Assembly: GCA_030605345.1 (NCBI GenBank)
Contig: JAUWIN010000003.1
Coordinates: forward strand, 1 to 55,053
Source: Candidatus Brocadiia bacterium
GTDB lineage: Bacteria > Planctomycetota > PUPC01
Direction of reading: 5' to 3'
Length of the DNA: 55,053 nucleotides
The notes beneath the pieces are model-generated. The model did not search any database and had not been told where the DNA came from. It saw only the letters and a list, made by a program, of their open reading frames with translations. Positions 1-9,929 of this stretch are shown one piece after another (positions within the stretch are counted from its first letter, which is position 1; each line of letters begins with the position of its first letter). A program made the position numbers and the translations under genes.

Positions 1-600
1 ATCGAAAACATCGAAAACAAAATCCTCGAATCAGCGAGGGCCGAGTCCGAGTCCGTCGTAAGCAAGGCCAAGTAGCAGGCACGAAAGCTCGTCCAGGCAG
101 CGGCAGCCGAAAACAAGGCACGCTACCAGAAGGCTCTCGACGAAGCCCGCGCCGTACTCGAGCAGGAGCACGGCCAGAAGACCACCTCAGCCAGAGCCGC
201 CAGCAACCTGGAGCTGCTCACACACAAAACCGAAATCCTCGACCAGGTCTTCAAAGCGGCGGTTGAACGCTTCATCGGCGACCGGGGCAAAGAATACCGC
301 AAGTGGCTCGCAGCGCGACTCGAGTCCGTCGCCACAGAAAAAGGCACCGTCCTTCCCGCGGAGGCCGACCGGGAAATCATCGGCGAGCTGCTCTCGAACC
401 TCGCGGCCAACGAAGGACTGTCGCTCGCCGAGGACTCCGCACCCCTTCGCGGCGGCTTCCTGGTCAGTGGCGAGAAGGCGGATTTCGACCTCTCGCTCGA
501 TACCGAACTGGAACAAGTGAAAACACAACTGCTGCCAGAGTTAGCCCGGAGGGCATTTGACGGGCGCACCGCCGATGAACACTACCAGAAGCAAACGTAG
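1..600 (+). pseudogene. atpE: V/A-type ATP synthase subunit E, 5'-partial at window edge, interrupted by one in-frame TAG (73-75)
   Basis: Frame +1 is open from base 1 to TAG 598-600 except for TAG at 73-75. The translation IENIENKILESARAESESVVSKAK*QARKLVQAAAAENKARYQKALDEARAVLEQE...GGFLVSGEKADFDLSLDTELEQVK shows the charged coiled-coil N-terminus plus globular C-terminus of subunit E. No ATG/GTG/TTG occurs in frame between 76 and 516, so the part after the TAG cannot start on its own. It lies directly upstream of the C-F-A-B-D genes. Confidence 0.7.
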
Positions 601-633: not shown

Positions 634-1626
634 GTGACGCGTCCGACGGACTGGTGCTATCCGAGCGGAGTGGTGGCGGTGCTGGAGACGTCCCTGTTCG
701 GTTCTGGGACGCTCGGTGAACTGGCCGGTTCTGCACCGTCGCCGGACGAAATCTTCTCCCGCGTGCGGCGCAGCCGGGTCTACGGCGCCGTTGAGGCATC
801 GGAGGCCGACGACGCGATGCGGGCGGCTGCGTCGCTTGAGTCGGCGGTGGTCGGCTTCGCAAGGTCGTTGGCCGCACAATGCCCCGACGAGCGGGTTGCG
901 GACGTGTTTCTGGTTGAGTATGACCTGCGGGACCTGTCGAACTATCTGAAGTGGAAGTATTGTGGAGCGGAACGTCGCCCGGTCGAACTTTCCACTCTCC
1001 CCGAGGAACGGACCGACCAGTTCATTGTTGAGCAGCCGCGCCTCGCGCGGCTCGCAGAAGCCACGGCTGAGGTTGCGGAGGCGGCTGAGGGACAGATGCC
1101 TTCATACATCATCGACCTGATGATCGACGGCGCGTTTATCGGAATGCTGCCCGAACTGACTGAACCGCTCAGTTCAGAGATTGTGGACGAATGGGCAGCA
1201 GAGCGCCGCCGCACCGCGGCGGTCGAGGCGGTTGTCCGCGCCAAAATGGCTGGGGTGAGCAGTTCCGACATACACCATTACGTTCTCGCCCGACTGCCGT
1301 CCGAATCGGCGATGGCTACGCTTGCCGACGCCGCGCCGGACAACTTGTCCAAGGCTCTGGCGGACGCGGTGTCTCCGGAAATCGCCGAGGGGTTCACTCT
1401 GGCGGCTGGGCCAAGCGGATTGCTGGATTTGACCGCTCAGTTTGACGCGGCGCTGGAGCGGATTCTCGAGCCAGCGCGATACGTAGCATCCGGGCCGGAG
1501 CGGGTGTTTAGTTTTCTGTGGCACTTGTTCCGGGAGAACCGCAACCTGCGGGCGCTGCTCGGGGGCTCGGCCGGAGGAATCGAGCCGGAAGTGGTCGCAC
1601 GAAGCATGCGAGGCGTCAATGTTTAG
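634..1626 (+). CDS. atpC: V/A-type ATP synthase subunit C (eukaryotic d-like)
   Basis: 330-aa ORF with GTG start, between the E and F genes. The length and the helical motifs (YDLRDLSNYLKWKY, LFRENRNLRALLGG) are typical of subunit C. It overlaps atpF by 8 nt. Confidence 0.7.
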   Translation: MTRPTDWCYPSGVVAVLETSLFGSGTLGELAGSAPSPDEIFSRVRRSRVYGAVEASEADDAMRAAASLESAVVGFARSLAAQCPDERVADVFLVEYDLRDLSNYLKWKYCGAERRPVELSTLPEERTDQFIVEQPRLARLAEATAEVAEAAEGQMPSYIIDLMIDGAFIGMLPELTEPLSSEIVDEWAAERRRTAAVEAVVRAKMAGVSSSDIHHYVLARLPSESAMATLADAAPDNLSKALADAVSPEIAEGFTLAAGPSGLLDLTAQFDAALERILEPARYVASGPERVFSFLWHLFRENRNLRALLGGSAGGIEPEVVARSMRGVNV

Positions 1627-1978
1627 GATGGTCGCCATAGGCCCTGAGCGCTTCACGCTGCCGCTCGGAGCAATCGGTTTCGAGATGGCGGAAACGAGGC
1701 CTGATAACTTCGTTGAGGAGCTTCGGCGCCTCCTCGCAGACCGGGCCGTGGCGCTGGTTGTCTGCGGTGAATCGTTCGTAACGCAGGCCGTCATGGAGGA
1801 GTTCAAGGAGACGACTGCGGCGGCCAGCGCGACGGTGTTGGTGGTGCCGGACGGTCCCGAAAAGCGCGGAATTGGGTATGAAGTCGTCCGCACCGCCATC
1901 GAGCGAGCCGCGGGGGTTGACCTGCTCAGTTCCGCCGAGGCGGAGGATACTGCCGAAACCAGGTCAAGCACTGGCTAG
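1619..1978 (+). CDS. atpF: V/A-type ATP synthase subunit F
   Basis: 119-aa ORF starting MFRMVAIGPERFTLPLGAIGFEM, followed by ALVVCGESF. The size and its position immediately before the catalytic A subunit fit subunit F. Confidence 0.65.
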   Translation: MFRMVAIGPERFTLPLGAIGFEMAETRPDNFVEELRRLLADRAVALVVCGESFVTQAVMEEFKETTAAASATVLVVPDGPEKRGIGYEVVRTAIERAAGVDLLSSAEAEDTAETRSSTG

Positions 1979-1994
1979 AGGAAACAAACAGAAC

Positions 1995-3800
1995 ATGTCG
2001 GACAAAGCCGAAGGAAAAATAATCAAGGTTTCGGGCCCGCTGGTGGTCGCGGTTGACCTGGAAGGCACCAAGATGCACGAGGTGGTACGGCTCGGCAGGC
2101 AGCGCCTGTTCGGCGAGGTTATCGAAATCCGCAGCGACAAATATTCGATCCAGGTGTATGAACAAACAGAAGGACTTGGCCCCGGCGACCCGGTAGTCCG
2201 CACCGAAATGCCCCTTACCGTCGAACTTGGCCCGGGCATGATAGGCACTATCTTCGACGGCATCCAGCGCCCGCTGGAAAAAATCATGGGCCGGGCCGGG
2301 AACTTCATCAGCCGGGGGGTTGACATTCCCGCTCTCGACCGGGACAAGAAGTGGCACTTCGTCCCCGACGCCGCAGAGGGCGATGTGGTCAGCGCGGGCG
2401 AAATCGTCGGCCACGTAGATGAGACCCAGGCCATCACCCACAAGATAATGGTGCCAAGCGGCATCGAAGGCAGGATTACCTCCATAGAAGAGAAGAACGC
2501 CACGATTGAAGAAACCGTGGCGGTGATTGAGGGCGAATCCGGGGCGCACCATCTCAAGATGCTTCAGCGCTGGCCCGTGCGTGAGGCCCGGCCTGTGGCC
2601 GAACGGATTCCGCCGACTGAGCCGCTGGTGACGGGCCAGCGGGTCCTCGCCACACTCTTCCCCATTGCCAAGGGCGGCACCGCCTGCGTGCCGGGGCCGT
2701 TTGGCTCGGGCAAAACCGTCGTCCAGCACCAACTCGCAAAGTGGGCCAACGCAGAGTTCATTGTGTATGTCGGATGCGGGGAACGCGGCAACGAGATGAC
2801 CGATGTCCTGCTGGAGTTCCCTCAACTCAAGGACCCCCGCACCGGCCGCCCGCTGTTCGAGCGGACTGTGCTCGTCGCCAACACCAGCAACATGCCCGTG
2901 GCCGCCCGCGAGGCGAGCATTTTCACAGGCATAGCGATGGCCGAGTATTTCCGCGACATGGGCTACAACGTCGCCGTGATGGCCGACTCCACCTCGCGCT
3001 GGGCTGAGGCGCTCCGCGAAATCTCCGGCCGGCTGGAGGAAATGCCGGGCGAAGAGGGATACCCCGCTTACCTCGGCAGCAGCATCGCCGGGTTCTACGA
3101 ACGCGCAGGCAAGGTCACCTGCCTCGGCTCAGACCGGCGGCAGGGCAGCATCAGCCTCATCGGCGCCGTCCGCCCACCGGGCGGCGACATGTCCGACCCC
3201 GTAGTCCAGGCCACACTCCGAGTGGTCCGGGCATTCTGGGGACTCGACGACCGCCTGGCATCCGAGCGCCACTTCCCAGCCATCAGCTGGCTGACCAGTT
3301 ATTCGCTATACACCAGAGAAATCGACAAGCACGTCAGCCAGACCATCGGCCCCGAATGGCAGAGGAACCGCACCGAGGCCAGCGCACTCCTACAGCGCGA
3401 GGACGAACTCCAGGAGATGGTCCGCCTGGTCGGCATGGAAGCGCTGTCGGACTCCGACCGGCTCACCCTCCAGACCGCGAAGATGATCCGCGAGGACTTC
3501 CTCCAGCAGAACGCGTTCATGGACGAGGATACGTACACTTCGCTGGAAAAGCAGTTCAAGATGCTGAACCTCATCATCCATTACCACCACAAGAGCCGTG
3601 AGGCGCTGGAGGCTGGCGCCGACATCGACAGCCTTACCAGCCTCCCAGTGCTCGAGCGCATCGCCCGGGCGAAACTTCTGCCGGAGGACAAACTGGAAGA
3701 GTTCGACAGCATACTGAAGGAAATCCAAGAACAAACGGCCGAAACCCACATCTCGAAAAAAGAATATCCGAACTCGACAAGAAATCCCAAATCGAAATGA
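1995..3800 (+). CDS. atpA: V/A-type ATP synthase catalytic subunit A
   Basis: Starts MSDKAEGKIIKVSGPLVVA. It has the Walker A motif GPFGSGKTVVQ, plus ANTSNMPVAAREASIFTGIAMAEYFRDMGY and ADSTSRWAEALREISGRLEEMPGEEGYPAYL. I chose ATG 1995 rather than the ORF-track start 1872, whose extra 41 residues overlap atpF and look non-native. The last ~20 codons are AT-rich (see findings). Confidence 0.95.
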   Translation: MSDKAEGKIIKVSGPLVVAVDLEGTKMHEVVRLGRQRLFGEVIEIRSDKYSIQVYEQTEGLGPGDPVVRTEMPLTVELGPGMIGTIFDGIQRPLEKIMGRAGNFISRGVDIPALDRDKKWHFVPDAAEGDVVSAGEIVGHVDETQAITHKIMVPSGIEGRITSIEEKNATIEETVAVIEGESGAHHLKMLQRWPVREARPVAERIPPTEPLVTGQRVLATLFPIAKGGTACVPGPFGSGKTVVQHQLAKWANAEFIVYVGCGERGNEMTDVLLEFPQLKDPRTGRPLFERTVLVANTSNMPVAAREASIFTGIAMAEYFRDMGYNVAVMADSTSRWAEALREISGRLEEMPGEEGYPAYLGSSIAGFYERAGKVTCLGSDRRQGSISLIGAVRPPGGDMSDPVVQATLRVVRAFWGLDDRLASERHFPAISWLTSYSLYTREIDKHVSQTIGPEWQRNRTEASALLQREDELQEMVRLVGMEALSDSDRLTLQTAKMIREDFLQQNAFMDEDTYTSLEKQFKMLNLIIHYHHKSREALEAGADIDSLTSLPVLERIARAKLLPEDKLEEFDSILKEIQEQTAETHISKKEYPNSTRNPKSK

Positions 3801-4975
3801 GAAAATAGTAACAACACATAATCAGAAAATGGGACGCACTAAAACCAAACCGTTCGGGTGTCCCCCGACAGCCTGGCGTGCTTCTCCTTTTCACGGCAAC
3901 ATGTCTTACTGAGAGCGACTTGATGTACCCTGCAGCCTCGCCACCATAGGAAAATTCGTGAACATGAGCCATTCAATAATCTGCAAAAGTGGAAAGACAC
4001 ACATACGTGAGGGGAAACCAACTAATGGAAACGTTCCAGAGTGAAGTTGGATTTAGCTACAAGACAGTTAAGGTAACCCAAAGTCGAATCGACAAAGGTT
4101 TATTGTCGATCCCGGTGTCTTTAATCGAATATTTCCCCAAAAACAAAAGGAAGATTTACGTAACTCTTGAAGGCAGCAAGAACCCAATTCCAAGAACCTT
4201 CATCCCATATTCTAGCAGCAGCAAAGAAGCCAGGATTGGCGGCATGACCCAATTTTACAACAAATTTGGAATTAACGACGGGGATGAGCTCGTAATCCAG
4301 ATTCTCGCCGACGACAAATACAGGATTCTCAGAGAGGACACGTTTAAACATAGCGTCAGAAACACTCAGAATGAACTAGACAATTCGAAAGATGAGGAAA
4401 ATGCAATTTCAAAACTGAGGCAAATCCGCGATATCGCAAATTGCGATTTCAGGACGACCTTGTTAAATGAGTATTTTAGACTTTCCAAAAGAGCAGTTGT
4501 AAAGAGGAAATATAATAAATCCAGCCTACGTAAAGCAAAGGAAGGTGTTCCCCCCTCCATCAGAAGGATAATAACGGAGATCTATGACGGGAAATGCCAG
4601 ATTTCCGGATTCAGCTTCCTGATGAAAAACGGTAAACGGTATATTGAAATACATCATATAAAACCCGAACTGGGGAATCACCTGAAAAACCTTTTACTGG
4701 TGAGCCCCAATGTCCACGCGCAATTTACCCATGCACACGTGCGGCGGTTCTTTGACGATGAAGGTTGGTTGAGGCGAGTGAGATTTAATGATCGCCAATA
4801 TACCGTGTACCAGATGCTTGATAATATACAGAAGCCATTTGAAAAGGAAGTTCATTATCTGGATCTGTAGAACTGAACGACGAAATTGCCTACCACAATC
4901 AGGGAATTTCAGTTATCTTCTACCCGTGGGCTGTTCGAGTCTTCAGAAAACCCGGATTGACGCACTCGTGCCTTT
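3745..4975. mobile_element. AT-rich insertion (~1.2 kb) between atpA and atpB carrying one HNH nuclease gene; boundaries approximate
   Basis: There is an abrupt compositional drop: hand counts give ~40% GC on lines 4021-4080 and 4381-4440, against 60-80% on flanking lines. It interrupts an A-B gene junction that is otherwise tight. No integrase, transposase or clear terminal repeats were seen. Confidence 0.45.
4025..4870 (+). CDS. HNH (beta-beta-alpha-Me) nuclease with N-terminal B3/AbrB-like DNA-binding barrel-like region
   Basis: The C-terminal region reads DGKCQISGFSF...RYIEIHHIKPELGNHLKNLLLVSPNVHAQFTH, which is an HNH signature (HH-I-x-P ... N ... P-N-x-H). The N-terminal region GLLSIPVSLIEYFPKNKRKIYVTLEGSKNPIPRTFIPYSSSSKEARIGGMTQFYNKFGINDGDELVIQI follows the B3/EcoRII-N-like pattern. 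ATG 4025 is preceded by GAGGGGAAA; an alternative start lies at 3989. AT-rich codon usage differs from the neighbours. Confidence 0.7.
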   Translation: METFQSEVGFSYKTVKVTQSRIDKGLLSIPVSLIEYFPKNKRKIYVTLEGSKNPIPRTFIPYSSSSKEARIGGMTQFYNKFGINDGDELVIQILADDKYRILREDTFKHSVRNTQNELDNSKDEENAISKLRQIRDIANCDFRTTLLNEYFRLSKRAVVKRKYNKSSLRKAKEGVPPSIRRIITEIYDGKCQISGFSFLMKNGKRYIEIHHIKPELGNHLKNLLLVSPNVHAQFTHAHVRRFFDDEGWLRRVRFNDRQYTVYQMLDNIQKPFEKEVHYLDL

Positions 4976-4993
4976 CTAAACGAGGGAGGAGTT

Positions 4994-6397
4994 TTGGTCA
5001 GAGAATATAAGACGGTTCGCGACATCGTCGGCCCGCTGATGCTGGTCGAGGGGGTCGAGGGAATCACGTTTGGAGAGTTGGCCGAAGTCCACCTCCGGGA
5101 CGGCAGCAGGCGTCTCGCGCAGGTGCTCGAAGTGACCACCGACTCCGCCCTGGTCCAGCTGTTCGAGGGCACCCGCGACATCGCACCGGGCAGGGTCAAA
5201 CTGCGCTTCCTCGGGCGGGCGCTGCGGATGGACGTCTCGCCCGACATGCTCGGGCGGACCTTCGACGGGATGGGCCGGCCCATCGACGGCGGGCCGCCCG
5301 TCATACCCGCAAAGACCGTCGACATCAATGGCAGCCCTATCAACCCCTGCGCCAGGGACTACCCCAACGAGTTCATCCAGACGGGCATTTCGACCATCGA
5401 CGTGATGAATACCCTCGTCCGCGGCCAGAAATTGCCCCTGTTCAGCGGCTCCGGCCTGCCACACGCAATGCTCGGAGCGCAAATCGCCCGCCAGGCAAAA
5501 GTCCTCTCCACCCAAGAAGGCTTCTGCGTCGTGTTCTGCGCCATGGGCATCACCTTCGAGGAGTCTGATTACTTCATACAGGACTTCAAACGGACCGGCG
5601 CCATCGAGCGGGCGGTGCTGTTCATCAACCTGGCCGACGGCCCTGTCATCGAGCGGATTGCGGCGCCACGCGCCGCACTGACCGCCGCCGAATACCTCGC
5701 TTTCGAACTGGACATGCACGTCCTCGTGATACTGACCGATATGACCAACTACTGCGACGCGCTCCGCGAGATCTCCGCGGCGCGGAAGGAAGTCCCCGCC
5801 CGACGCGGCTATCCGGGCTATATGTACACCGATCTCTCGCAGATTTACGAACGGGCCGGGCGCATCCGCGGGCTCAAAGGCTCCATCACGCAAATCCCCA
5901 TCCTGTCCATGCCCGACGATGATAAGACCAACCCGGTCCCAGACCTGACCGGATACATCACCGAGGGCCAAATCCTGCTCGACCGGCCCATGCACGGCGA
6001 GGGCATCTATCCGCCGGTCAATGTGCTCCCCTCGCTCTCGCGGCTGAAGGACAAAGGCATCGGCGAGGGCAAGACGCGCCGGGACCACTCCGAACTGATG
6101 AACCAACTATATGCGGCGTATGCCCGAGGCAAGAGCGCCAAGGAGTTGGCCGTGGTGCTGGGCGAATCGTCACTCTCGCAGACCGACCTGCTGTTCGTAA
6201 AGTTCTCAGACGAGTTCGAGCAAAGGTTCGTCGCCCAAGGGCCCGACGAAAACAGGCCCATCGGGGAAGCGTTAGACCTTGGGTGGGAGTTGCTCGGAAT
6301 CCTCCCCCGTGCGGAACTCAAGCGCTGTAAGCCCGAAACGCTCGACAAATACCACAAACCACGGAAAGAAAAAAAGGAAGTAAAGACACAAGCGTAG
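4994..6397 (+). CDS. atpB: V/A-type ATP synthase subunit B
   Basis: TTG start after GAGGGAGGA. It begins [23 protein letters not shown] and contains [42 protein letters not shown] and [21 protein letters not shown]. It has a Lys-rich C-terminal tail. Confidence 0.95.
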
Positions 6398-6450: not shown

Positions 6451-7074
6451 ATGAGAAAGAAGCTCAATCCCAACCGCATGGAGTTGTTCCGGCTGCGCAA
6501 GCGGCTGGTCCTGGCGCAGCGGGGGCACAAACTGCTGAAAGACAAACTCGAAGGGCTGGTCCAGGAGGTGACCGACCTGCTGGGAAGATACAAGACGCTT
6601 CGCCGGCGCTTCGACCAGAAGTTCACCGATGTGCTCGCCCGCTTCACCCTCGCAACGGCCATCGCCCCACAGGGCGCCGTCGCCGAGGCCGTAAGCCAGA
6701 ACGCTTCGACCGCCGAACTCGAAGTGGAGACCCGTCGTGTGATGGGAGTCGCCCTTCCCCGGTTCTATCCGCCAGCCCAGCCCGAGGCATATCGATACAG
6801 CCTCACCCAGACCCCGCCCGAACTCGATGTCGCCTTCGAGGAATTGCGGAAACTGCCCGATGCGCTGTTCGAGCTGGCGGAGGTCGAAAAGACCTTGCAA
6901 CTGCTGGCGCACGAACTCGAGCGCACCCGCCGCCGCACCAACGCCCTCGAACACGTCCTCATCCCCGAACTCCAGGAGCAGCGCAGGGACATCGAGCAGA
7001 AAATCAGCGAACGGGAACGCAGCAACGTCAGCCGCCTGATGAAAATCAAAGACATGCTGATGGCTCAGCAGTAG
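6451..7074 (+). CDS. atpD: V/A-type ATP synthase subunit D
   Basis: The sequence MRKKLNPNRMELFRLRKRLVLAQRGHKLLKDKLEGL ... RRRTNALEHVLIPEL is the canonical subunit D coiled coil. It is the last gene of the operon. Confidence 0.9.
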   Translation: MRKKLNPNRMELFRLRKRLVLAQRGHKLLKDKLEGLVQEVTDLLGRYKTLRRRFDQKFTDVLARFTLATAIAPQGAVAEAVSQNASTAELEVETRRVMGVALPRFYPPAQPEAYRYSLTQTPPELDVAFEELRKLPDALFELAEVEKTLQLLAHELERTRRRTNALEHVLIPELQEQRRDIEQKISERERSNVSRLMKIKDMLMAQQ

Positions 7075-7116
7075 TCGAACTCCTCTCTGTTCTCGACTGG
7101 GAATAGGAGCATCATT

Positions 7117-8610
7117 GTGAGATTCAGAAAGGCCGGCGGTTGTGTGACAATCAGCTCAATCGAAAAGGTCAACAGAGTCAAGTGTTGCGCAATCCTGTTT
7201 ATGGCTGCCAGTACGTTCGCCAACGCGGGCTGCACGACCCTGTTCAGCATAGGCGAATCGGCAGAAAAGCAGGCCAGGCCGTCGCCGGAGGCACTGAGAA
7301 GCATAATTGAAAAGAACGCATCATTCGATCTCAAAAAGTTCCCTGTCGGTTTCTGGAACTATCTCCACATGAGCAGCCATGCTGAACACATCAACGAGGC
7401 GGAAGTGCAGGACTGGGCCGATGCCGGATTCACCCTGACGAAAAGTCCGTCATACAACCCGAAAGACCCGGAGCAACTTCAACTCATGAAAGACCTGCTG
7501 AAGTGGGCGAACGAACGCGGCATGAAGCTCATTGTTCGCGATTGGCGGGTGTACGGAGATGAGCTGCCGCAGCTAATCTCAGATTTTCGCGATAACCCGG
7601 CGGTGTTCGGCTTTCACGTCTGTGACGAGCCACACGGAGAGTCCTGTGAATCGATATTTGAACTTTGCCGGCGGCTCAAGAAAGCCGCACCTGAACGCCA
7701 CGCGTTCATCAACCTCGGCCCCTACGGCCCCGGCGTAGCGGAGTGGCTGGGATTCGACACCTATGCGGACTACATTAATTGTGCCGCGGGCAAGGGCAAT
7801 CTCGATTTTCTCTGCTTCGATAACTATGTCCAGATGAACCCGGGAACCAGCGGATGGGACGATTATTTCGCCAATCTCCGCCTCATCCGAGAAGGCGCCT
7901 GGCGATACGGGATCCCGTTCTGGACTACCTTGGTCTCGGTGGGCCATTACCATTATCGCTGCCCCAACTACGACGACCTGCGGTGGCAATTCAATTCCGC
8001 CATTTGCTCCGGAGCGACCGGGGTCCTCTGGTTCTTTTACTATATGCGCGACCCCCACAGCAATTACCGCTTCCCACCGGTGGACGAATATTGGGAGAAA
8101 ACCCACACATACTACGACCTCCAGCGCATCCAGACCGCCTTCCATAAACGTTATGGAGACCTTTTCCTCAAACTGGCCCCCACGCGGGTTACTTTCTATC
8201 CGGAGGCGTTCGGCGACGGAGAAGTGTTCACACCGAACGAACTTCTCTTGGATGTGTGGACATATAAAAAAGACCGGCGTATCCTTGTTGGCGAGTTCGT
8301 TGATATTGAAGGCCGGCGATACATGATGGTGGTCAACAACAGTACCACCAACAACGCGCACGTCGTGTTGACCTTCCCCAAGCATGCGAAAAGCTACTCC
8401 TGGAACTGGCAGGGAAAAGAATACGAGGGAACGGCGTATTCGCACTTTGGAACCGAACACAGACAAGCAGGTTACGTAGCGGGATACTGGCTTGCCCCCG
8501 GCCAGGAACTTGTCCAGCGCGTCGAGGCCGAGGGAATCCGAAAAACGGAGATTGCAACTCCGACAGATAGTAAAAACGAGAACGACCAGCAAAAAAAGGA
8601 AACACCATGA
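7117..8610 (+). CDS. Putative lipoprotein, glycoside-hydrolase-like TIM-barrel protein (function tentative)
   Basis: GTG start after AGGAG. The signal region ends in the lipobox-like ANAGC. NPAVFGFHVCDEPHGE resembles the acid/base strand of clan GH-A enzymes. The ORF is 497 aa and coupled (ATGA) to the next gene. Confidence 0.4.
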   Translation: MRFRKAGGCVTISSIEKVNRVKCCAILFMAASTFANAGCTTLFSIGESAEKQARPSPEALRSIIEKNASFDLKKFPVGFWNYLHMSSHAEHINEAEVQDWADAGFTLTKSPSYNPKDPEQLQLMKDLLKWANERGMKLIVRDWRVYGDELPQLISDFRDNPAVFGFHVCDEPHGESCESIFELCRRLKKAAPERHAFINLGPYGPGVAEWLGFDTYADYINCAAGKGNLDFLCFDNYVQMNPGTSGWDDYFANLRLIREGAWRYGIPFWTTLVSVGHYHYRCPNYDDLRWQFNSAICSGATGVLWFFYYMRDPHSNYRFPPVDEYWEKTHTYYDLQRIQTAFHKRYGDLFLKLAPTRVTFYPEAFGDGEVFTPNELLLDVWTYKKDRRILVGEFVDIEGRRYMMVVNNSTTNNAHVVLTFPKHAKSYSWNWQGKEYEGTAYSHFGTEHRQAGYVAGYWLAPGQELVQRVEAEGIRKTEIATPTDSKNENDQQKKETP

Positions 8611-9929
8611 GCAAAAAGCGGTTCGTTAACGTCGGCACCGGAGGCCGGTGTGAAATGTTCATCGATGCCATCACCGGGGCCTACAAGGATTCTGCGGAGC
8701 TGGTCGGCCTCTGCGACATTAACATGGGCCGTGCCGAACTGCGACAAAGACAACTCAAAGAAAAGGGGATCGAGGTCCCAATCTATCATTCTGACAAGTT
8801 CGACCAGATGGTGGACGAACAGAAACCAGACAGCGTAATAGTCACCACGAAGGACTGTTTCCACCACAAATACATCTGCCGTGCCATGGAGCTCGGCTGC
8901 GACGCCATCACCGAAAAACCCATGACAATAGACCAAGACAAGTGCCAGCAGATTGTTGACACCATCAACAAAACCGGCAAAGACCTTCGCGTCACCTTCA
9001 ACTATCGCTATTCACCCTCGCACACACAGGTAAAGCGATTGCTTCGGGACGGTGTCATCGGAAAGATCCTTTCGGTCGATTTCGCATGGAACCTGGACGT
9101 ACACCACGGCGCCGACTATTACCGCAGGTGGCATCGCCACAAGGCGAACAGCGGCGGGTTGCTTGTCCACAAAGCAACACACCACTTCGATTTGCTCAAC
9201 TGGTGGATTTGTTCCTCGCCCGAAACCGTCGTCGCCCTTGGCCGTCGCGCGTTTTATATTCCTGAAACCGCCGACAGACTCGGCCTCAACAAACGCACCG
9301 AACGCTGCCGCACCTGCCCGCACAGGCAAGACGGTTCGTGCAACTTCGCGCTCGACCTCTCCAGCAGCAAAGATCTCAAGGAACTATATCTCGACCAGGA
9401 GCACCATGACGGATACTTCCGTGACCGCTGTGTATTCAGCCCGGACATCGACATCGAAGATTCCATGAACTTGGTTGTCCGGTACGTCAGCGGTGTCCAC
9501 ATGTCTTACTGCCTCAATTCCTTCCTCCCGTGGGAGGGGTTCCGCGTCATGTTCAACGGCACCAGCGGGCGGCTCGAATATCAGGGACTCGAGTCCCCCT
9601 ATATCAGCGGCGACGGCACCGTCCCCGGCGAGAGAATCGAAGAAAAAAGCCATATCCATGTCTATCCGCAGTTCGCAGATCCATATAACATCGAACTTGA
9701 AACCGGCAGCGGCGGCCACGGCGGGGGCGACACACGTCTGCTCGACGACGTCCTCGGCGAGAGGCGCGAGGACCCTCTCAACCACGCCGCCGGCGTAGCC
9801 GAAGGATGCTGGTCAATCCTCACCGGCGTCTCGGCAAATATCTCAATGGCAGGCGGCGGACAGCCGGTCTATACCCCCGGCCTCGTCTCCGGAATACCGG
9901 AAGCGAACTTCGGCGAGGTGCCCCAATAG
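8607..9929 (+). CDS. Gfo/Idh/MocA-family NAD(P)-dependent oxidoreductase
   Basis: The N-terminal Rossmann region reads KRFVNVGTGGRCEMFIDAI...LVGLCDIN, followed by DSVIVTTKDCFHHKYICRAMELGCDAITEKPM and the typical EKP motif. Confidence 0.8.
   Translation: MSKKRFVNVGTGGRCEMFIDAITGAYKDSAELVGLCDINMGRAELRQRQLKEKGIEVPIYHSDKFDQMVDEQKPDSVIVTTKDCFHHKYICRAMELGCDAITEKPMTIDQDKCQQIVDTINKTGKDLRVTFNYRYSPSHTQVKRLLRDGVIGKILSVDFAWNLDVHHGADYYRRWHRHKANSGGLLVHKATHHFDLLNWWICSSPETVVALGRRAFYIPETADRLGLNKRTERCRTCPHRQDGSCNFALDLSSSKDLKELYLDQEHHDGYFRDRCVFSPDIDIEDSMNLVVRYVSGVHMSYCLNSFLPWEGFRVMFNGTSGRLEYQGLESPYISGDGTVPGERIEEKSHIHVYPQFADPYNIELETGSGGHGGGDTRLLDDVLGERREDPLNHAAGVAEGCWSILTGVSANISMAGGGQPVYTPGLVSGIPEANFGEVPQ

Follow-up and report, generated by a model that had tools for sequence, protein, structure and literature searches.

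How does a gene for a predicted nuclease come to stand between atpA and atpB, two genes of a V/A-type ATPase operon? The question is raised by a contig of a Planctomycetota metagenome-assembled genome (MAG; Candidatus Brocadiia bacterium, GCA_030605345.1, JAUWIN010000003.1), which we refer to as the window (55,053 nucleotides (nt), positions 1 to 55,053 of the forward strand) and which carries the operon on the plus strand in its first 7 kb. A first-pass annotation, made from the letters of the window and a list of its open reading frames (ORFs), had offered two answers: a selfish homing nuclease that targets the atpA-atpB junction, or a solitary modification-dependent nuclease parked in an essential operon. 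The analysis presented here favours a different one, to which we give a probability of roughly one half, namely that the gene in the window is an end-stage cassette, or a stranded piece of one, in an open spacer, that its family probably consists of homing-type endonucleases, and that this copy is immobile, co-transcribed with the atp genes and still constrained. The parts of the segment that bear on this reading are the following.

3745-4978, no strand: foreign AT-rich segment filling the atpA-atpB spacer (from GC content, tetranucleotides and homology edges)
3942-4010, plus strand: decayed remnant of a small ORF, C-terminal third, reading HRKIREHEPFNNLQKWKDTHT and then a stop (found with a hidden Markov model (HMM) of 35 small-ORF sequences)
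4009-4014, plus strand: putative ribosome-binding site (RBS) GAGGGG, 10 nt ahead of the ATG at 4025 (read from the sequence)
4025-4870, plus strand: intact B3-HNH nuclease gene, 281 amino acids (aa) plus stop (ORF, homologues, AlphaFold)
4025-4333, plus strand: B3-type DNA-binding pseudobarrel, aa 1-103 (Foldseek of the model)
4334-4582, plus strand: helical linker, with three long helices (aa 104-154) and a low-confidence loop (aa 160-176) (model)
4583-4867, plus strand: HNH (beta-beta-alpha-metal) domain and a small C-terminal sheet (profile match, Pfam HNH_2, PHROGs, model)
4871-4978, no strand: 3' tail of the insert, 108 nt with 47% GC, in which no methyltransferase remnant is detectable

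The composition of the segment sets it apart from its surroundings. The GC content of 3745-4975 is 43.1%, compared to 60.6 +/- 2.4% in equal-sized windows over the rest of the 55-kb contig (z = -7.4), the lowest of which has 53%; the segment also contains the contig's lowest-GC 1-kb bin, and its tetranucleotide distance from the rest of the contig reaches z = +10.5. The foreign-looking AT-rich insert of about 1.2 kb, previously estimated from hand counts, thus holds under windowed statistics. Alignment of the DNA with the four nearest AtpA relatives (L014-L017) delimits it further: the conserved part of atpA extends to ~3745, the final 19 codons (3744-3800) have 38.6% GC, like the insert, and are unrelated to the relatives' tails, and homology is back only at the atpB RBS at ~4982, the right edge of the segment lying at ~4978, just 5' of this site. 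AtpA tails are variable in all of the relatives. The left junction accordingly lies inside the 3' end of atpA, where it had been proposed to be. Neither terminal inverted repeats, other terminal repeats nor a target duplication were found at the segment; there are no tRNA genes on the contig, Rfam gave no match in 3400-5300, and promoter-like and terminator-like sites are not in excess over shuffled sequence. No methyltransferase, integrase or transposase gene stands beside the ORF, in agreement with the first-pass annotation, and the whole window holds no methyltransferase of the type that partners the family elsewhere.

The one long ORF of the segment runs from 3989 to 4870 and would encode 293 aa from a GTG, but the likely start codon is the ATG at 4025, behind GAGGGG, giving 281 aa. 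Searches with this ORF as a single sequence recognise it poorly: Pfam and NCBIfam matches are sub-threshold (Pfam HNH_2 17.8 bits versus a cut-off of 21), PHROGs matches have an expectation value (E) of ~1e-3, and neither the PADLOC defence models nor a single-sequence search of the PDB gave a match. The direct library matches are weak, and the domains were assigned from the family profile and from the fold. The family comprises 282 homologues of 277-282 aa, 46-60% identical over the full length (the nearest at 60%). Their source MAGs belong to Planctomycetota, Deltaproteobacteria, Bacteroidales and Chloroherpetonaceae, among other groups. Modelled with AlphaFold on the basis of 36 of these homologues, the protein reaches a predicted local distance difference test score (pLDDT) of 90.8 and a predicted template-modelling score (pTM) of 0.85. 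With this model, Foldseek matches the N-terminal part to FUS3 (6j9b, E 1e-4, template-modelling score (TM) 0.65) and to the N-domain of LlaJI.R1 (6c5d, E 3e-4), likewise to NGA1, TEM1 and VAL1 (E 1e-4 to 1e-3, target TM 0.5-0.68, probability 1.0), and more weakly to BfiI-C and the B3 domain of UbaLAI. FUS3, NGA1, TEM1 and VAL1 are plant B3 proteins, and the B3 domain, a seven-stranded pseudobarrel that is also found in EcoRII-N and BfiI-C, is one that plant transcription factors use. Pfam B3 matches 15 of the 36 members, below cut-off (best E 2e-6; 27.9 versus 30.1 bits), and Pfam HNH_2 likewise matches 15 of the 36.

For the C-terminal part, the only solved-structure match of the family profile is the HNH domain of Escherichia coli McrA (6ghc, E 0.0014), in an alignment that sets CQISG...EIHHI...N...SPNVH against CENCG...EVHHV...N...CPNCH. 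The catalytic His, Asn and His are kept, and of the four zinc cysteines only one is left (CxxS...SxxV), so that both the HNH core and the unusual loss of zinc ligands read from the letters by the first-pass annotation are recovered, as is its B3/EcoRII-N-type N-terminus. The HNH residues of the window protein are C191, H210-H211, N222, N229 and H231, among which EIHH (210-211), N222 and N229-x-H231 are invariant across the 36 family members; in the model, strands at 208-211 and 223-226 lead into a helix at 228-236. The HNH/beta-beta-alpha-metal superfamily is marked by two strands and a helix that bear a His general base, a structural Asn and a His/Asn metal ligand; judged by residues, profile and modelled strand-helix order, the C-terminal domain is a predicted member, and the modelled N-terminus has the B3/DNA-binding pseudobarrel fold. 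The B3 pseudobarrel should read a specific DNA sequence and the McrA-like HNH domain should cut.

The gene has kept its reading frame and its key residues. All 42 of the invariant family residues are retained; in 86 near-invariant columns the window copy departs 8 times, the most in the sample (median 3), and every change is conservative. GC content at third codon positions (GC3) in the nuclease gene is 49%, compared to 14-30% in family members of low-GC hosts and ~80% in host genes, which fits partial amelioration without loss of the frame. Across the family the nuclease gene is always AT-richer than its host (mean 32% versus 44%, n = 70), with partial amelioration in high-GC hosts.

The contexts of 93 family loci, gathered by nuclease similarity, revealed a recurrent cassette on one strand: a gene for a protein of ~290 aa (R), an ORF of 62-67 aa, the B3-HNH gene and a methyltransferase gene (M). 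The small ORF (~63 aa), for which no family match was found, overlaps the start of the nuclease gene, and M begins 0-20 nt past the nuclease stop; a complete cassette is present in L136, on a 2.25-Mb contig. M is a beta-class N6/N4 methyltransferase (PF01555, E 3e-47) with an SPPY motif. The R protein (R286, ~286 aa) has more than 2,600 homologues, every one labelled 'hypothetical', and none among plasmids. Its invariant D97...E118-x-K120, the PD-(D/E)XK pattern, lies on successive strands that follow a long helix. In the empty operons (L174-L186), R is followed directly by M (295-313 aa, ~306), with nothing between. We infer that R286 is a restriction enzyme only from the D...ExK motif and the operon partner, and the operon of R (286-288 aa) and M looks like a very common uncharacterised type II restriction-modification (R-M) system. 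One such two-gene operon occupies 4001-5783 of L179, and another is found in the cultured Raineya orbicola (WP_101359915.1).

Comparison of filled with empty operons at the DNA level places the module at a fixed site. A stretch of ~1,040 bp, made up of the small ORF and the nuclease gene, takes the place of ~177 bp, and the sequence replaced at the R/M junction comprises ~11-20 nt from the end of R and ~150-200 nt (~55-62 codons) from the start of M. On the right the module ends with the stop codon of the nuclease gene, and M codon ~56 comes immediately after it; the left edge lies ~45 nt 5' of the small ORF. None of the 93 nuclease loci has the conserved first 62 residues of M (GTETSAFGT.GRINHDS.KFY); in L174, L177, L179 and L183 this extension precedes a conserved internal methionine, Met63, at which the remaining gene could start. 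The same junction is used in two lineages (L136, L147 and L139 versus the empty L179; L108 and L106 versus the empty L183), and filled and empty operons coexist in two R-M clades, with R only ~51-54% identical between the clades. In one closely related pair, L108 (filled) and L183 (empty), R is 89% identical at the DNA level. Such fixed-site presence and absence at the R/M junction is, as judged from aligned sequences, the pattern of a mobile insert. Discordance between the components is no more than suggestive of module mobility: L108 and L012 share 90% identity in the nuclease and 66% in R, and in L125 and L001 R and M are nearest one clade and the HNH protein nearest the other, but several of the R fragments compared are pseudogenes, so that these cases are not decisive. 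The selfish, free-standing nuclease imagined by the first-pass annotation gains indirect support from the fixed-site pattern, at the R/M junction and not at the atp genes.

The genes on either side of the module are eroded in a regular manner. In most filled loci R is shortened from its 3' end, with remnants that cover residues 1 to 82-220 and stop 10-110 nt before the small ORF. M has lost sequence from the 5' side, with more than 20 distinct break points, and the start of its remnant lies almost always between -7 and +20 nt of the nuclease stop; an internal deletion occurs in one locus only. In many independent loci M is without the SPPY region while the neighbouring nuclease keeps all of its catalytic residues. 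At the far end of this series, some 'solitary' loci retain the last ~27 codons of M, and in ~20 loci the nuclease gene stands alone beside housekeeping genes, for example after ffh-rpsP-rimM (L111), after gcvH-gcvP (L145) and before a ThiF-family gene (L007). There are also HNH-M pairs without R or the small ORF, in which M is complete from Met63 (L152-L157).

Other genes accompany the nuclease in some branches. One branch has a conserved zinc-ribbon ORF of 86-91 aa just downstream (L145 4856-5131; L141 3243-3503), which weakly matches the Lar restriction-alleviation family (PF14354, E 8e-4). In L144, from a host with 67% GC, a 155-aa HTH_17 (excisionase-type) ORF (3322-3789, E 6e-13) precedes and overlaps the nuclease gene, an upstream partner other than the usual 63-aa ORF.

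The window itself retains a scrap of this arrangement. The decayed small-ORF remnant aligns over 3942-4007 with HMM positions 34-54 of 56, at 7-11 bits (E 0.0016-0.0019, with search spaces that were small), ends 15 nt 5' of the nuclease ATG and lies on the same strand as in the cassette; its N-terminal two thirds are lost and an in-frame stop stands upstream. With this remnant upstream of the nuclease gene, the window copy looks like an end-stage cassette. HMMs of the cassette components run over 3700-5100 matched only this remnant, with no trace of R or M, and tblastn over the whole window found neither R286, nor the partner methyltransferase, nor a complete small ORF. Co-transcription with the atp genes is probable, since the gene lies on the same strand, has its own RBS and is accompanied by terminator-like sites at no more than chance frequency.

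In order to rationalise these observations, we hypothesise that in its native setting the B3 domain of the predicted enzyme would recognise a particular sequence, close to which the HNH domain would cut. The enzyme would cut module-less operons near the R/M junction, in the strongly conserved 5' part of M, and the module would be copied in during repair, with the cut ends degraded to varying extents, so that differing amounts of R and M are lost. If its target is long or rare, one would understand how hosts tolerate solitary copies in the absence of a methyltransferase. On the most economical reading, a cassette or cassette fragment entered the insertion-prone atpA-atpB spacer, where only the nuclease gene survived intact, and the window nuclease would not be an element aimed at ATPase genes. 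Here the gene probably cannot move and shares a transcript with the atp genes, and it appears to be under some constraint, being either useful, for example against incoming DNA, or not yet decayed. The wider proposal is that the 63-aa ORF and the B3-HNH gene form a selfish homing module naturally directed at R/M junctions in a widespread type II R-M system. Its insertion would remove the 62 N-terminal residues of M, the surrounding R-M genes would then collapse, and solitary intact nucleases would be left scattered about, the copy in the ATPase operon included. This we advance tentatively, as a possibility that we would not back at even odds.

Several points count against this interpretation. 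We infer homing-type behaviour of the predicted nuclease at the R/M junction only from fixed-site presence and absence in sequence comparisons, and much the same picture would arise from one ancient insertion that was later lost when the locus recombined with empty alleles. The searches of plasmids and of 50,697 phage records, in which the nuclease has no homologues, gave no independent indication that it is mobile. The model of R286 gave no significant match among solved structures in a fold search. In the window, the score of the small-ORF remnant is weak (7-11 bits), and there is no R or M remnant, so that insertion of a fragment holding the nuclease only is possible. As the loci were collected through nuclease similarity, ascertainment accounts in part for the constant intactness of the nuclease, though not for the way in which the deletions are anchored at the module edges.

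The site of insertion can be judged against the rest of the operon, whose genes are listed here.

1-600, plus strand: atpE (subunit E), 3' part, truncated by the start of the window
634-1626, plus strand: atpC (Pfam/NCBIfam)
1619-1978, plus strand: atpF (Pfam/NCBIfam)
1995-3800, plus strand: atpA, V/A-type subunit A, 601 aa (Pfam/NCBIfam; the TIGR01043 match stops 21 residues short of the end)
4982-4991, plus strand: atpB RBS GAGGGAGGAG (read from the sequence)
4994-6397, plus strand: atpB, intact, 467 aa, TTG start (Pfam/NCBIfam)
6451-7074, plus strand: atpD (Pfam/NCBIfam)

Pfam and NCBIfam assignments bear out C, F, A, B and D in the order E-C-F-A-B-D, with adjacent genes overlapping or separated by less than 60 nt except for atpA and atpB, which are 1193 nt apart. 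In a scan of AtpA over species-representative genomes, the spacer was taken as the distance between the point where AtpA conservation ends and the start of AtpB. Its median length is 28 nt across the 78 other genomes with adjacent atpA and atpB, compared to 1250 nt in the window. The nearest AtpA relatives come from uncultured Planctomycetota (L014 82%, L015 80%, L016 78%, L017 73%), and expanded spacers are confined to the window and the three closest of them (L016 1354 nt, L014 441 nt, L015 282 nt). The spacer regions of these relatives (L014 5792-6189, L015 4197-4447, L016 5795-7102) have native GC contents of 58-61%, with a lipoprotein-like ORF in L014 and two ORFs in L016; the genes in them match no Pfam family and have no copy in the window. 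The comparison of the junction with related genomes that had been suggested, for a homologous gene, thus turned up unrelated genes and no nuclease. Across the compared genomes, the atpA-atpB spacer is a lineage-specific soft spot, a landing place for insertions, and the nuclease segment is its unique foreign occupant. Both L015 (429-839) and L016 (upstream of atpC, 2542) carry an extra ORF between atpE and atpC, so other spacers of the operon in this clade are also insertion-prone. Low-complexity, repeat-coding stretches occur in the atp spacers of the L015/L016 group.

These comparisons bear most directly on the proposal that the gene is a free-standing homing endonuclease which targets the atpA-atpB junction and spreads like the mob and seg genes of phages. 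The position of the gene, on the same strand between two highly conserved genes, the resemblance of a DNA-binding domain joined to HNH to free-standing homing enzymes, and a left junction that extends into the atpA tail would all suit such an element. However, the nuclease is found at this junction in 0 of the 78 other genomes (median spacer 28 nt) and 0 of the 93 family loci adjoin atp genes, the spacer of the nearest relatives holds other cargo, and with the nearest protein relative at 60% identity there is no sign of recent spread. We consider this proposal very improbable, and the suggestion of the first-pass annotation that the nuclease is directed at atpA-atpB is not upheld. An intein-encoded homing endonuclease of the VMA1 type, which would be inserted in frame in atpA with splicing blocks and a LAGLIDADG domain, was rejected outright: AtpA, at 601 aa, is colinear with relatives of 592-601 aa, and the nuclease is a separate downstream ORF.

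A solitary modification-dependent (type IV-like) defence nuclease, in which B3 would sense modified or foreign sequence and HNH would cut with no methyltransferase needed, was the second answer of the first-pass annotation. It agrees with the absence from the 55-kb contig of any methyltransferase related to the family partner, with the more than 20 solitary intact copies in unrelated housekeeping neighbourhoods, with McrA as the closest solved HNH by sequence, with the B3-fold domain that heads LlaJI.R1, and with the N-terminal sensor and C-terminal HNH that are the usual layout of modification-dependent enzymes (PMC6765204). In most family loci, however, a methyltransferase gene, or what is left of one, lies close behind the nuclease gene, with a gap of 0-20 nt, and in a published screen methyltransferase linkage was taken to argue against modification dependence (PMC6765204). 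None of the PADLOC defence models matches either. Moreover, the B3-like domains of EcoRII, BfiI and UbaLAI recognise unmodified sequence. We regard the type IV-like reading as unlikely; the lack of a linked methyltransferase holds for the window but does not extend to the family, where one follows the nuclease gene in most loci. A functionless relic, the last ORF of a decayed cassette, unexpressed or inactive and awaiting loss, is improbable to a similar degree. The degraded small ORF, the disappearance of R and M and a number of departures at near-invariant positions that exceeds that of any other sampled copy (8 versus a median of 3) point that way; the open frame of 281 codons with its 42 invariant residues and only conservative changes, a GC3 shifted well towards the host value without a frame break, and the presence of an RBS on the strand of a transcribed operon without an excess of terminator-like sites point the other way. 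Finally, the gene could be an orphaned classical type II enzyme, the true partner of the adjacent methyltransferase, here protected by a methyltransferase outside the contig. The HNH-M pairs in which M is complete from Met63 and R and the small ORF are absent (L152-L157) could be taken as such systems, one source labels a member 'predicted restriction endonuclease', and HNH type II enzymes are well known (PMC4081073). The loss of the catalytic SPPY region from the adjacent M in many loci whose nucleases keep all catalytic residues, the fact that this M family already has R286 as its partner in thousands of two-gene operons, and the many solitary copies render it quite unlikely, and in the window no intact cognate methyltransferase stands beside the nuclease.

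The favoured reading, of a cassette remnant in an open spacer, has counterparts among known systems. The free-standing HNH homing genes of phages (T4 MobE between nrdA and nrdB, I-HmuI type) also consist of a single nuclease gene between conserved genes and join HNH to a separate DNA-binding module, and the present family resembles them in its fixed-site presence and absence and its compact ends. It differs in its B3 pseudobarrel module, in being absent as a family from the 50,697 phage records, and in a site that is an R-M-like junction rather than a phage gene pair, with ~180 bp of the target lost. B3 or pseudobarrel recognition modules are established in restriction enzymes (PMC3973309, PMC5766183, PMC4267654), and EcoRII and UbaLAI (PD-(D/E)XK), BfiI and R.NgoAVII/CglI (phospholipase D-type, PLD) and LlaJI.R1 (GTPase) use the same fold, whereas the catalytic partner in the window protein is HNH and the identity between the domains is only 12-15%. 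McrA (type IV) and KpnI, MnlI, Hpy99I and PacI (type II) share the beta-beta-alpha-metal HNH core; compared to these, the window protein has three of four zinc cysteines replaced and another N-terminal domain, and its gene has no partner methyltransferase. The ShiLan domain (PMC11855218), compared by description only, is likewise an HNH gene recurrently inserted at a DNA methyltransferase gene, but ShiLan is an in-frame insert in a phage methylase, whereas the family forms a two-gene module that replaces a bacterial R/M junction and removes the 5' end of M. Mobile R-M complexes in operons (Furuta et al. 2010, PMC2853133) similarly place AT-rich restriction-type genes between housekeeping genes without an integrase or transposase; the window differs from them in that only the nuclease gene and a fragment of the adjoining small ORF are left, with no methyltransferase and no long target duplication. 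The first-pass annotation had called the arrangement undescribed. In the literature searched, the coverage of which was incomplete, we found no paper describing a B3-HNH enzyme or a nuclease module at R/M junctions, so novelty stands in that respect; the family itself is already in databases, where its 282 proteins go by 'HNH endonuclease' or, in one source, 'predicted restriction endonuclease'.

Taken alone, the window is of modest significance, offering one case of a nuclease gene that arrived by horizontal transfer and sits in an ATPase operon, in a spacer that is unusually open. At the level of the family, the combination of B3 with HNH and the mobile-insert-like behaviour in a very common, unannotated R-M-like operon weigh more. 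Should the enzyme prove to cut the empty R/M junction, it would be a homing-type element that preys on R-M systems, and, if the selfish-module proposal holds, a parasite of an addiction module. It would then also provide a mechanism for rapid decay of R-M systems and a new scaffold for sequence-specific nucleases.

Two further features of the operon region may be mentioned. In atpE an in-frame TAG is present at 73-75 (...VSKAK*QARKLV...), where the homologue in L017 reads through; it could be an assembly error, or mark a pseudogene or a restart. If the TAG is real, the operon is perhaps not fully functional, which would weaken the idea of a nuclease parked in an essential operon. Directly 3' of atpD, at 7000-9000 of the window, there is a milder GC dip (52.7-54.6%), which holds a 497-aa ORF without a Pfam match (7117-8610), followed by a Gfo/Idh/MocA oxidoreductase gene at 8607-9929.

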